From: a virus
DNA length: 15,758 nucleotides
Virus record (IMG/VR): IMGVR_UViG_3300033063_000067
Span: 1 to 15,758 of that record
Reading direction: 5' to 3' (one strand)
Numbering within the stretch: position 1 is the stretch's first letter; every line of letters begins with the position of its first letter. Shown here in pieces: positions 13,720 to 15,169 of this stretch. The translations under genes were made by a program, and so were the position numbers. Under the pieces are notes generated by a model that saw only the letters and a program-made list of their open reading frames with translations, did no database searches and was not told the DNA's origin.

Positions 13720-13992
13720 ATGTACGTCAACAAGAATGCAGCAAGTCAATCTCGTCGTCAAGTCCAGCGCCGCTTCGCACCAGGCACCTTTGCCGTAAAC
13801 GGGCAAGGCAAGCTGACGTTGGTCATCGGCTGGTCGCCGGTCGCCGCCGACATCAATCCTCGCACCGGATACGTCCGGCGCGCCGCGAGCTGGGAAGCGC
13901 TGATCTGTGCCAACGATCGAATCGAGCGTCTCGGTTGGGAAGTATTCCGAGATCTGTGGACGTTAGAAGAATGGGAAGCACATGAAGCTTGA
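13720..13992 (+). CDS. Hypothetical protein, 90 aa. PGD-family-like (FAPGTFAVNG...LTLVIGWSP).
   Basis: Protein-like composition. The competing ORF 13695..13985 is Arg-rich junk. Confidence 0.55.
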   Translation: MYVNKNAASQSRRQVQRRFAPGTFAVNGQGKLTLVIGWSPVAADINPRTGYVRRAASWEALICANDRIERLGWEVFRDLWTLEEWEAHEA

Positions 13993-14272
13993 AGTCATCA
14001 ATCCCAAAATCTTTGCGTTATCAAGGATCATTGATGAAAATGAGCAACCATGGCAACCTGGGGATTTCTGTCGGGCCTGGCACGATAGGAGGAGCTTAGG
14101 ATTGATCATTTCTGTTAATCATGACGAGGAATTGTTGACTCTTTGGTCGATCGCTCCACACAGTCCTAGCGGGTACTCAAACACCGCCCAATCCCAACAG
14201 ATACGTGACGAAGAAGATACTCAAATTCTACGTGATTTACAGGCTTTATTGAGTCATGATCAGGACGTATGA
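13982..14272 (+). CDS. PGD beta-motif family protein, tandem copy 1 (96 aa).
   Basis: WQPGDFCRAWHDRRSLGLIISVNHDEELLTLWSIAPH aligns residue-for-residue with copies 2 and 3 below. The start overlaps the upstream stop. Confidence 0.7.
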   Translation: MKLEVINPKIFALSRIIDENEQPWQPGDFCRAWHDRRSLGLIISVNHDEELLTLWSIAPHSPSGYSNTAQSQQIRDEEDTQILRDLQALLSHDQDV

Positions 14273-14555
14273 ACACCCGCACGAGATGGCGATCATTGCC
14301 TATGAGTCTCAAAGAGAAGGCATCCATTTGAAGCCCGGCGATTGGGTCCGACACTCGGACAGGACCGGAAGCAAGGGCATGCTCATCGCCAACACGGACG
14401 ACAGCTTGGTCGTGTTGTGGTCGATCCCGCCCGGACCCATGACCATCATTGATCCGGATGACTTCAAGCCTCGAAAAAGTGTCATGACAAGGTATGGTAC
14501 CTCTTTAGTTCGTCATGATTACTACGGAACGATCAAGATTGAGGACGTTAAGTGA
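14256..14555 (+). CDS. PGD beta-motif family protein, tandem copy 2 (99 aa).
   Basis: LKPGDWVRHSDRTGSKGMLIANTDDSLVVLWSIPPGP. ATGA-type overlap with the upstream gene. Confidence 0.7.
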   Translation: MIRTYEHPHEMAIIAYESQREGIHLKPGDWVRHSDRTGSKGMLIANTDDSLVVLWSIPPGPMTIIDPDDFKPRKSVMTRYGTSLVRHDYYGTIKIEDVK

Positions 14556-15169
14556 GTCTCAAAACTTACGATCGAGACTTTGACCACGTCAATGACGAGA
14601 TATTGCCATGGCCTTTCAACGTCATTGACGAAGATGGCGTCATTGTCATCGACTCTTGGCATGACATCGTTCCCGGCAAGTGGGTCACCCATAAGACTGC
14701 AGGTGGCAAGGGATTAGTCATCGCCGTCACTGACGACCAGTTGACGGTCCTGTGGTCAGATCCTCCCGGGATCACGGGCTTTTCCAACATCGCATTTCCC
14801 ATCATCAGACGAGTCCAACCTGCGCTCATTCGTAATGAACTTGTTGGCATTCAACCAATGACGGCACCGACCGGACTGATCTTCTACATGGACTACACCT
14901 ACGGTGATGATATCGACAAAAAGTGTAGCGAGGGACCTCTATGGGATAGACTTCGGTGGAAGGCGGTCCGACTGTGGAGAACACGCATCCGATCACAATT
15001 ATCATCTTTGTCCTCCTGGTGTCGCTCGCGGTTTGGCAAGAAATTGTCATCAAGCGAAAATCGAGTGTTCGGACCAAAGTTGACGCAGGACGACCTGATC
15101 ATCAAAGCGACAATCGAGAGGATGGCGAAGGGTGATCAAGCTAGCGGATCGCGGTTTTTCCGTCGGTGA
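14552..15169 (+). CDS. PGD beta-motif family protein, tandem copy 3. The C-terminal ~70 aa of the ORF is low-complexity and of doubtful authenticity.
   Basis: GTG start in a GTGA overlap. IVPGKWVTHKTAGGKGLVIAVTDDQLTVLWSDPPG matches the family. The ORF tail RIRSQLSSLSSWCRSRFGKK is Arg/Ser-rich and overlaps a better-looking alternate-frame small TM ORF. Confidence 0.55.
   Translation: MSLKTYDRDFDHVNDEILPWPFNVIDEDGVIVIDSWHDIVPGKWVTHKTAGGKGLVIAVTDDQLTVLWSDPPGITGFSNIAFPIIRRVQPALIRNELVGIQPMTAPTGLIFYMDYTYGDDIDKKCSEGPLWDRLRWKAVRLWRTRIRSQLSSLSSWCRSRFGKKLSSSENRVFGPKLTQDDLIIKATIERMAKGDQASGSRFFRR
14956..15135 (+). CDS. Candidate small membrane protein (~53-59 aa) in the alternate frame. It is hidden inside the tail of ORF 14552..15169.
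   Basis: The frame opens at 14950. GTG starts are available at 14956 and 14974. The translation reads ...VENTHPITIIIFVLLVSLAVWQEIVIKRKSSVRTKVDAGRPDHQSDNREDGEG, a textbook TM helix followed by basic residues. Its stop TGA 15133..15135 forms a GTGA overlap with the start of the next gene (15132). Confidence 0.35.
   Translation: MEGGPTVENTHPITIIIFVLLVSLAVWQEIVIKRKSSVRTKVDAGRPDHQSDNREDGEG

Follow-up and report, generated by a model that had tools for sequence, protein, structure and literature searches.

A phage gene array whose small proteins appear to join a common predicted beta-barrel module to excised segments of the T4-type major capsid protein

Capsid-derived restriction factors are known from animals, where Fv1 and the enJS56A1 Gag of sheep are host genes made from whole Gag domains. 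Eukaryotic vaults carry their cargo through a shared domain that binds the major vault protein (MVP). In bacteria, the phage portal protein is a recurrent immune trigger (Avs4), as is the major capsid protein (MCP). Within the T4 MCP, gp23, the Gol region is the stretch of 29 residues at 93–122. Lit and CapRel sense MCPs via short motifs, and Avs7 senses MCP together with EF-Tu (PMC13581612). The properties of the Gol peptide, including its binding to domains II/III of EF-Tu and the enabling of cleavage by Lit, have been described (PMC3014915), as have the capsid-targeting sequences (CTS) of T4 internal proteins and the propeptides of giant phages (PMC5694885) and the components of vaults (PMC12280208).

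The locus described here lies in a window of 15,758 nt, i.e. the whole stretch of viral DNA that was analysed (IMG/VR record IMGVR_UViG_3300033063_000067). Its array very probably represents an undescribed protein family, in which a beta-barrel carrier module of ~60–70 aa is followed by a flexible tail corresponding to one conserved segment excised from a T4-type head protein. Full-text searches of the literature on MCP fragments, on dominant-negative or decoy capsid pieces and on truncated HK97 paralogs returned no account of such proteins. The features of the window that matter here are the following.

6893–7141, + strand: borderline divergent module-like gene without an MCP tail, GAMGLIVATHLTAWTYVLWSMP
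9229–11892, + strand: MVP homologue, 887 aa (Pfam MVP_shoulder, E 3e-29)
12874–13374, + strand: fourth member, class B; module aa 1–66 (module profile E 8.8e-14)
aa ~67–100 of the 12874 product, + strand: degenerate segment of the MCP E-loop return, SHSRKLRATWTVQE
13982–14272, + strand: g1, class C member, 96 aa; module aa 1–58 (13982–14155), tail aa 59–96 (14156–14269)
14256–14555, + strand: g2, class D member, 99 aa; module aa 1–60 (14256–14435), tail aa 61–99 (14436–14552)
14552–15169, + strand: g3, class A member, 205 aa; module aa 1–72 (14552–14767)
aa 73–125 of g3 (14768–14926), + strand: segment of the MCP N-arm/'Gol' region
aa 126–205 of g3 (14927–15166), + strand: conserved C-terminus, basic, W/R/S-rich and helical

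A tandem trio had been predicted here, and the ORFs at 13982–14272, 14256–14555 and 14552–15169 do contain the peptides then quoted. Their starts overlap the preceding stops (ATG...TGA; GTGA), and GAGGA is found 7 nt ahead of the GTG start of g3. Within the window, blastp relates g2 to g3 (E 1.4e-10), g1 to g2 (E 4.6e-5) and g1 to g3 (E 3e-3). The homology also holds against shuffled controls: Smith-Waterman alignment of the trio pairs gave z = 16.0, 9.2 and 5.8, with the observed score reached by none of 1000 shuffles. A module profile built from other contigs only recovered all three genes with E-values from 1e-11 to 1e-20 (9.5e-12 for the g1 module), and shuffled or reversed decoys scored E >= 0.35. 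The homologous region begins at the initiator Met ('MSxLKTY') and covers ~60–72 aa, so that homologous cores are confirmed but their proposed length of ~40 aa is too short.

The repeated domain downstream of the MVP gene had been called small and beta-rich, and AF2 agrees with this description: it predicts a small beta-barrel for the N-terminal ~60–70 aa (pLDDT 81–96), with strands only in the module. For g2 the module has a pLDDT of 81–94 and the tail, without secondary structure, one of 52–68. For g3 these values are 87–96 for the module and 48–64 for the MCP segment, with helices at 130–161 and 179–197. The module is like SH3-like, KOW, Tudor and bL21-like barrels in its size, its all-beta prediction, its 'PGDxV' hairpin and its 'G-x-G-hhh' strand pattern. 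The more specific SH3/KOW assignment is nevertheless unproven because the predicted structure gave no significant fold match. Searches with the module in Pfam, PHROG and NCBIfam gave no hits, and no curated SH3/KOW/Tudor-like family was matched.

The original prediction also listed more than ten looser paralogs, few of which survive. The clear one is the 12874 gene (E 9e-14), whose ATG agrees with the starts of its orthologs, the mechanical ORF opening at TTG 12841; after the MCP segment its product continues with an acidic region and then the GADIRLHDDGRVTVKRK C-terminus. Two others are borderline: the 6893–7141 gene (hmmsearch E 0.024 against shuffles at >= 0.35; hhalign 52.7%), which has an ortholog in contig L027 (11035–11316; module E 1e-3), and 11950–12282 (hhalign 40%). 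Compared with the module by hhalign, the products at 2541, 7795, 8845, 12269, 13337 and 13720 all remain under 6% and the 12576/15132 family reaches 12%. The latter two genes and 1701 on the opposite strand constitute a paralog family of their own. A relation of this family to methionine aminopeptidase was considered, its twelve best PDB profile hits all being MetAP1, and was rejected: these hits have E 0.6, Pfam gives no support, and hhalign against the M24 peptidase gene of a related contig (Pfam Peptidase_M24) gives 0.3%.

The main point concerns the C-terminal tails, which by homology are excised pieces of the T4-type MCP (Gp23). Among the models used for the comparison are an MCP HMM of 458 states and Pfam Gp23 (PF07068) of 376 positions with a gathering cut-off of 24.4 bits. 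The g3 tail corresponds to the N-arm/'Gol' region: it matches Pfam Gp23 2–47 (E 2.6e-13, 50.6 bits), positions 55–107 of the MCP HMM (E 1.8e-18) and the PHROG 138 major head protein (E 1.4e-11). A class A profile finds residues 95–134 of T4 gp23 in the PDB (E 8e-5), and phmmer with T4 gp23 as query matches class A with residues 90–134 (E 3e-6). The g2 tail MTIIDPDDFKPRKSVMTRYGTSLVRHDYYGTIKIEDVK corresponds to the C-terminal strands of the peripheral (P) domain (MCP HMM 415–455, E 2.2e-8). Its class D aligns with MCPs at T4 432–521 (hhalign 98.7%, E 3e-16); with Pfam Gp23 the window copy matches 328–356 at E 0.0028 and the L006 ortholog (L006 14865) matches 306–352 at E 7.7e-8 and 32.6 bits. 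The g1 tail SGYSNTAQSQQIRDEEDTQILRDLQ resembles the spine helix of the MCP. Taken alone, the window copy of g1 is not significant against the MCP HMM; a 5-member class C alignment gave 71% in hhalign against MCPs, and a 25-member alignment gave 85.7% against a 10-MCP alignment (E 5.4e-6, T4 gp23 263–315). Class B (12874) aligns with T4 240–288 (hhalign 94.6%, E 6.4e-8), its L001 ortholog at 2276–2779 matches Pfam Gp23 136–175 (E 2.1e-7, 31.1 bits), and the four best hits of a class B PDB profile search are all T4 gp23, residues 254–291 in full-length numbering (E 0.06–0.12). The Pfam gathering score is thus exceeded in three classes.

The four window members together appear to carry the segments that make up the MCP N-arm and P-domain. 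Only four segments of the MCP HMM are matched by tails, 53–110, 207–260, 254–284 and 387–456 of 458, i.e. 85–142, 240–293, 287–317 and 433–520 in T4 numbering. These are the most conserved parts of Gp23, as judged from invariant columns; in the folded MCP, B, C and D lie buried in the core. A concatenate of the four tails is collinear with real MCP genes along 96–99% of its length, and the MCP most closely related to the tails comes from a 595-kb uncultured phage. Among 218 family proteins, no match was found to the I (insertion) domain (142–240) or to the A (axial) domain (318–433); none of the four proteins can therefore be a capsid subunit. Since the profile matches are partial and the proteins have 96–205 aa versus ~400–520 aa for Gp23, a score above the Gp23 cut-off indicates homology of the fragment and not membership as a capsid protein. 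The array proteins are neither capsid proteins, pseudogenes nor artefacts.

The similarity to MCP leaves out the module. Tblastn had seemed to align g3 residues 3–120 with MCP genes, one match being partly upstream of the annotated MCP start. The idea that the module represents an N-terminal propeptide belonging to the MCP itself was rejected, the BLASTP pairs being similar only from about residue 63 onward. Split inteins, trans-splicing and a frameshifted MCP were also dismissed: intein motifs are absent, every gene has a separate start, and the genes do not follow the MCP in their order.

The array is conserved. It follows an MVP homologue in the same order in at least five diverged contigs of uncultured phages; this order, B-x-x-C-D-A, is the same in five or more independent assemblies, and in six or more (JGI, ENA, Logan) the ORFs are intact and their starts conserved. 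Public sequence data hold ~420 family clusters at 50% identity. Modules of orthologs are 42% identical across genomes and those of paralogs 31% within one genome, which places the paralog classes, as judged from these identities, before the split between the related phages. When the window is compared with its closest relative, dS is saturated (0.9–2.7 or undefined) and no excess of dN is seen. With such old classes and such a conserved order, the rapidly diversifying family once proposed is not supported. The tails are also under constraint: of the columns that are invariant in the g3 class, half fall in the MCP segment. Natural fusions combine tails (P0035 is B+D, and the P0114 tail is likewise combined), which argues that peptides are displayed additively and against one fixed, enzyme-like fold.

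In some genomes classes are added or lacking, and apparent portal tails occur. Three relatives match positions 284–306 of the profile of the T4-type portal protein gp20 (PF07230, 433 positions), with E-values of 0.006–0.07 that stay below the cut-off. A two-tail composite matched only the portal gene of Mel-JY01 (E 5), and a PDB profile search gave no match. Some relatives thus seem to carry T4-type portal segments in place of MCP ones; the window has no gene with a portal-type tail. The MVP gene is the conserved upstream neighbour and forms the context of the array: its copies are 74–80% identical and precede the same array in L001, L006 and L009/L010, and the array always starts 0.1–3 kb downstream, on the same strand. 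MVP homologues also occur in huge phages, two of which (LR756500 and LR756501) have no module genes within 17–20 kb of MVP. A related contig has its own Cpn60 beside a module-like gene, far from MVP. Near-identical DNA was not found in sequenced phages, where a module-only tblastn was also empty; exact-protein look-up of g3 returned no record, and GTDB genomes scanned with the MCP motif gave full-length MCP genes only. Promoter/terminator, tRNA and Rfam scans were not informative.

We propose, tentatively and as something possible rather than probable, that the tails are molecular mimics of head-protein segments, shown on a carrier domain. The binding, the partners and the benefit to the phage that we infer would be as follows. 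The tails would mimic the least mutable segments of an MCP, either that of the phage itself or that of a rival. The module would keep an otherwise unstructured peptide soluble and abundant. A partner recognising that segment would then be contested between the displayed peptide and capsid protein still nascent or unassembled. Partners would most likely be host factors reading these motifs, for instance immune proteins that sense motifs as Lit and CapRel do, and the EF-Tu–capsid-protein complex that they use. The outcome would be that detection of the phage's own head proteins is blunted. Low-confidence MCP segments beside a confidently predicted module are typical of peptides that may fold on a partner. 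The surroundings are a block of small non-structural genes, neither MCP nor portal being present in a whole 42-kb contig, which fits accessory or host-interaction genes. The apparent portal segments in relatives count for mimicry too, both portal and MCP being recurrent immune triggers. Against mimicry, a sensor might be activated and not blocked by a copy of its trigger peptide, the buried segments B, C and D would be invisible to surface-reading sensors such as Avs7, and simple decoy action explains neither the conserved MVP linkage nor why classes A and B have additional conserved C-termini. The four proteins match no anti-defence family, and together with MVP they gave no PADLOC hit at E <= 0.1. 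The earlier guesses of anti-defence decoys and of cargo modules both stay under consideration, and the homology of the tails gives the decoy or mimic idea a concrete basis.

It is unlikely, albeit conceivable, that the proteins are weapons against rival phages, in analogy with capsid-derived restriction factors. When T4-type phages co-infect, the displayed segments would insert into their MCP (and portal) during folding or assembly and block the building of capsomers or portal rings as dominant-negative caps. The N-arm, the E-loop equivalent and P-domain elements form inter-subunit and inter-capsomer contacts, the segments are conserved in all T4-type phages and hence would be broad-spectrum, the portal-derived tails of relatives fit a target in head assembly, and core elements are relevant only to unfolded or assembling protein. 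However, peptides of 30–50 aa must compete with the same segment in cis in the full-length protein. Moreover, considering the 595-kb phage with the nearest tail relative and the huge phages with MVP, a T4-type MCP is probably encoded by the carrier lineage too, so that the phage might be poisoned by its own array.

Somewhat more doubtful is a device for the phage's own head, in which the four tails, joined through their modules as a non-covalent P-domain replica or shown to a chaperonin, act as nucleus, template or regulator of MCP folding and assembly. The tails sum to the whole N-arm and P-domain and nothing else, translational coupling links the genes, whose order is fixed, and fusions link two classes; mutations that bypass the gp31 co-chaperonin map to the gp23 P-domain, and there is the Cpn60 gene adjoining a module-like gene. 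However, the order B-C-D-A is not collinear with MCP, the set of classes varies between genomes and may include portal tails, and the array is distant from any head genes. We give a small probability to the related idea of a split capsid domain, where the four modules associate and the peripheral domain of the MCP is copied non-covalently by co-folding of the N-arm strand, E-loop-return strand, spine helix and C-terminal sheet. If true, the resulting 'capsid-edge mimic' would have capsomers, portal, chaperonin or immune sensors as docking partners. It would also represent the first HK97-fold domain that is split, and a new phage route to manipulate capsid recognition or assembly.

There is a slim chance that the proteins are vault-cargo adaptors, the module binding the adjacent MVP-like cage and the tails recruiting or sequestering capsid or portal protein, or procapsids, there. 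The constant position behind a highly conserved MVP homologue and the loading of eukaryotic vaults through a shared MVP-binding domain speak for it, but the two huge phages have MVP without nearby module genes, a module-like gene also lies far from MVP beside Cpn60, and the module resembles neither the INT domain nor any vault partner. Debris, be it a decayed capsid-gene paralog split by a selfish mini-ORF or functionless assembly chimeras, is largely refuted and very improbable: decay would leave piecewise similarity to one gene and segments B and C are degenerate in the window, but the ORFs with their conserved starts are intact across independent assemblies, the clusters are many, conservation within the proteins is highest in the tails, the proteins are too small to hold diverged A or I domains, and every piece is preceded by the same module.

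Conserved cores of capsid and portal are hard for phages to change and are read by bacterial immunity (Lit, CapRel, Avs7/8/10). A family of phages encoding precisely such segments as free-standing peptides on a carrier, in conserved arrays, would represent a new molecular strategy whatever the function, be it blinding of sensors, titration of EF-Tu or chaperonin, poisoning of rival heads or guidance of its own. The four small proteins with their defined peptides are directly testable reagents, and the enigmatic MVP homologues of phages gain a function-linked neighbour. For annotation, Pfam 'Gp23' hits on viral-metagenome proteins of 100–200 aa are not truncated capsid genes.

Among known systems, T4-type Gp23/gp24 (PF07068, HK97 fold) has the conserved segments to which the array tails are homologous. 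In contrast to these proteins, those of the array hold only 25–60 residues of a ~400–520-aa fold, without A and I domains, each piece following an unrelated beta-barrel; the gene order is non-collinear and capsomers are impossible. The alignment of the g3-class tail to gp23 95–134 overlaps the Gol region, the trigger of the e14 Lit protease via EF-Tu. Both would be short MCP peptides able to act away from the capsid, but Gol sits within the complete MCP as an accidental trigger, whereas the array segment is a separate conserved product on a carrier domain. The CTS and giant-phage propeptides are, like the array tails, short peptides that relate otherwise unrelated proteins to the head. CTS are N-terminal, not derived from MCP and cut off by the prohead protease, whereas the array peptides are C-terminal copies of MCP segments. 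By analogy with Fv1 and enJS56A1, the array genes may be pieces or copies of capsid genes selected to interfere with capsid function; unlike these host genes, they are phage genes with excerpts of 30–50 aa on a common carrier, and they cover several segments.

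The window is densely filled with small ORFs of one strand that surround an 887-aa homologue of the major vault protein (MVP). The three tandem ORFs of the original prediction are present as described, the start of one overlapping the stop of the previous one, and GAGGA is located 7 nt 5' of the GTG start of the third. The genes considered here are listed below, with classes named after the segment of the T4-type major capsid protein (MCP; Gp23, PF07068) found in the C-terminal tail.

13982-14272: first tandem gene (class C)
14256-14555: second tandem gene (class D)
14552-15169: third tandem gene (class A)
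12874-13374: fourth family member (class B)
1701-2414 (-), 12576-12896 (+) and 15132-15530 (+): second paralog family

Using blastp inside the window, the second and third products match at E 1.4e-10, the first and second at E 4.6e-5, and the first and third at E 3e-3. Their local alignments score 5.8-16 standard deviations above 1000 shuffles, none of which scored as high. A profile made from other contigs only recovers all three at E 1e-11 to 1e-20 (decoys, i.e. shuffled and reversed versions of all window proteins, gave E >= 0.35). The similarity of the trio is not due to chance. The same profile recovers 12874-13374 at E 9e-14. More than ten looser paralogs had also been proposed; beyond the 12874 gene, the only borderline cases are 6893-7141 (hhalign 53%) and 11950-12282 (40%), and the others are at noise level. 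The genes at 12576, 15132 and 1701(-) group as a distinct family, with an N-terminal hairpin region 'VGDLV...GGVIYxV' and a conserved C-terminal helix 'LSLxDLATxYAxLGNFIRDxAxxxG'. Related contigs each have two or three copies, immediately downstream of the capsid-fragment array. The similarity of this second family to methionine aminopeptidase was weak (E 0.6) and was not borne out.

In an alignment of 21 paralogs and orthologs, homology begins at the initiator Met ('MSxLKTY') and continues as 'PGxWVxH...GxGIVIA...D..TVLWSxxP', with invariant P, G, G and W. This N-terminal module is followed by a tail, and similarity to MCP stops short of the module. Profile-profile alignments repeatedly set the module's final strand, 'xVLWSxxP' (14120-14155 region in the first tandem gene), on the MCP strand 'KLKAxWTxE', which immediately precedes the spine helix. 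The placement may be coincidental or may hint at the origin of the module.

Residues 62-92 of the class D protein match the end of Pfam Gp23 (328-356, E 0.003). Gp23 is matched by 9 of the 21 family members, and no other family is consistently matched. This identity of the tails is firm because orthologs in related contigs exceed the gathering score: the class D ortholog in contig L006 (Gp23 306-352, E 7.7e-8) and an ortholog of the 12874 gene (136-175, E 2.1e-7). An MCP HMM was made from ten full-length T4-type proteins (T4 gp23, gp24, seven phage MCPs and one from a 595-kb uncultured phage). When 218 family proteins were scanned with it, the tails matched four discrete stretches only.

MCP segments matched by the tails
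Segment A: MCP HMM 53-110, T4 gp23 85-142
Segment B: MCP HMM 207-260, T4 gp23 240-293
Segment C: MCP HMM 254-284, T4 gp23 287-317
Segment D: MCP HMM 387-456, T4 gp23 433-520

The equivalents of T4 gp23 142-240 and 318-433 were matched by none of the 218 proteins. Profile-profile comparison (hhalign) with the MCP alignment gave 98.7% (E 3e-16) for class D, 94.6% (E 6e-8) for class B, and 85.7% (E 5e-6, 25 sequences) or 71% (5 sequences) for class C. Once concatenated, the four tails are collinear with real MCP genes across 96-99% of their length at about 42% identity, the best matches being the uncultured 595-kb phage and Flavobacterium, Microcystis and Rhodothermus phages. Among the T4-type MCP genes binned into bacterial MAGs (L035-L042, GTDB scan), many encode a product of only about 400 aa without the insertion domain; in these, segments A and B adjoin. 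Two classes carry additional C-termini. In class A, a basic Trp/Arg/Ser-rich region (14927-15166, residues 126-205) is conserved as 'C.EGP.W...W...SSL.SW.RSRFGK', is predicted to form long helices and is unrelated to MCP. In class B (13174-13371, residues 101-166), an acidic stretch and a hairpin-like C-terminus 'GADIRLHxDGRVTVKRK' are shared.

In the T4 head structure, gp23 residue 98 lies within the N-terminal region making the N-arm, residues 282/284 in the P-domain, 455 in the P-domain sheet and 381/387/420 in the A domain, and the I domain is inserted via linkers equivalent to the E-loop (PMC9546572). On these placements, the four tail types correspond to the whole peripheral domain together with the N-arm, and no tail represents the axial or the insertion domain. 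Conservation across the MCP family is highest in the columns of the tail segments. Segment A overlaps the Gol region of T4 gp23 (residues 93-122). This region binds EF-Tu domains II/III, licenses the Lit protease and is better conserved than any other part of gp23 (PMC3014915; PMC9712102). AF2 models the MCP segments with low confidence (pLDDT 48-68) and almost no secondary structure, as would be expected for peptides ordered only with a partner.

In several relatives with the same module, none of them in the window, the tails resemble the conserved core of the T4-type portal protein gp20, e.g. 'NPLSVEEDIYIPVRN' and 'DVRYLQKKLAAALKLPPSALGF'.

Relatives with portal-like tails
L001 3678-4025: related contig
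L011 2774-3061 and 4170-4517: related contig
P0107, P0032, P0088, P0126, P0104, P0116, P0114: proteins with the same module

Three such relatives weakly match the same positions of Pfam Portal_T4 (284-306 of 433, E 0.006-0.07). The sole match of a two-tail composite among all sequenced phages is weak (E 5), to the portal gene of Microcystis phage Mel-JY01, which reads '...LRFNMQNMLEDFYMPVRGG...IEDVQYLQSKIFSALTVPKAYLGF'; a PDB profile search with the portal-like tails gave no match. Portal-derived tails are a lead from these comparisons and, if true, the family would sample conserved head-protein segments in general. By eye, the tail of P0114 looks like segment C (MCP spine helix) and then a portal-like segment.

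A word-indexed search found 19 relatives. When 1.84 billion cluster representatives were searched exhaustively with a profile, 420 proteins reached E <= 1e-3, nearly all of 60-230 aa (two long matches are unrelated repeat or low-complexity proteins). Classes were assigned automatically in 71 of 158 relatives examined (A 30, B 17, D 14, C 7, B+C 3), many of the unassigned ones being visibly B- or C-like, below threshold. Contiguous B+C tails are present in some proteins, and P0035 is a natural fusion of two modules with B and D tails. The gene neighbourhood is kept across independent JGI, Logan and IMG/VR assemblies: MVP homologue, a few small genes, B, two unrelated small genes, C, D (sometimes an extra member) and A, followed by the second paralog family and then metallophosphatase and IF1-like genes. 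Modules are 42% identical between orthologs across genomes versus 31% between paralogs within one genome. The classes are therefore old, rather than a rapidly diversifying family as had been suggested, and dN exceeds dS in no partition between the window and its nearest relative, dS being saturated. In class A, half of the invariant positions fall in the MCP segment.

No nucleotide match of the window to sequenced phages was found. The MVP homologue (9229-11892, +) shows MVP_shoulder (E 3e-29), weak Vault repeats and an SPFH-like character. Its counterparts in related contigs share 74-80% identity with it, and those in three records of uncultured huge phages (462 and 735 kb) share 39-42%; in the huge-phage records no module genes were found near MVP. 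A related IMG/VR contig of 42 kb was read over its full length: it encodes a phage lysozyme, an AAA+ ATPase and a Cpn60 chaperonin as well as a module-like ORF next to Cpn60, and no MCP or portal gene was found in it. IF1-like (Pfam eIF-1a) and M24 peptidase (methionine-aminopeptidase family) genes lie near the array in related contigs.

L024 (IMGVR_UViG_3300032053_000165, 42-kb contig) 12444-14090: Cpn60/GroEL chaperonin (Pfam E 3e-68)
L024 14478-14717: divergent module-like ORF 'LHPGGLVV...LGIVIGRDENTVPEWLVLWSVDP', a few hundred bases downstream of Cpn60
L001 12553-12819, L006 19571-19906, L009 18828-19088, L011 2040-2774: IF1-like / M24 peptidase loci

The IF1-like and M24 peptidase genes are translation-related and of the kind reported in huge phages. 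The Cpn60 gene is of interest because folding of T4 gp23 needs GroEL. The picture is that of a non-structural, accessory part of a large uncultured phage. At the left end of the window, positions 1-840 have a GC content of 64% versus 50-55% at the right end, and no convincing ORF, tRNA or Rfam match was found there. Only two genes point leftward: 1701-2414 and 843-1685 (-), the 280-aa product of the latter having a phosphoribosyltransferase domain at its C-terminus (Pfam E 7e-8).

The anatomy is that of a stable carrier to which an immutable segment of a head protein is attached as a flexible copy. Together with the encoding of several segments side by side, sometimes fused, it points to molecular mimicry: the tails may compete with full-length MCP, and perhaps portal, for whatever recognises those segments. 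Two difficulties are that a mimic of a trigger might activate a sensor instead of blocking it, and that segments B-D are buried in folded MCP. Among the main rivals is a role in folding or assembly of the phage's own MCP: the four tails sum to exactly one structural domain, this domain is the chaperonin-dependent one (PMC9546572), and Cpn60 is encoded in the lineage. The proteins could also exert dominant-negative interference with head assembly of rival T4-type phages, or be adaptors for the neighbouring MVP cage. Decay products are largely ruled out by the intact ORFs, the constrained tails, the hundreds of clusters and the same module before every piece; the proteins are not capsid subunits, because each holds only about 10% of the fold.

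Full-text literature searches on capsid fragments, on capsid pieces acting as decoys or dominant negatives and on truncated HK97 paralogs gave nothing similar, and the only paper found on viral MVPs, concerning two gut phages, does not mention such neighbours. To our knowledge, neither the module family nor the carrier plus capsid-segment architecture has been described. For molecular mimicry, host recognition machinery is the favoured target of the competition. Immune proteins that read motifs are known (Lit/CapRel type), and MCP and portal are classic immune triggers. EF-Tu, in addition to binding the Gol region, is part of the Avs7-MCP complex (PMC13581612).
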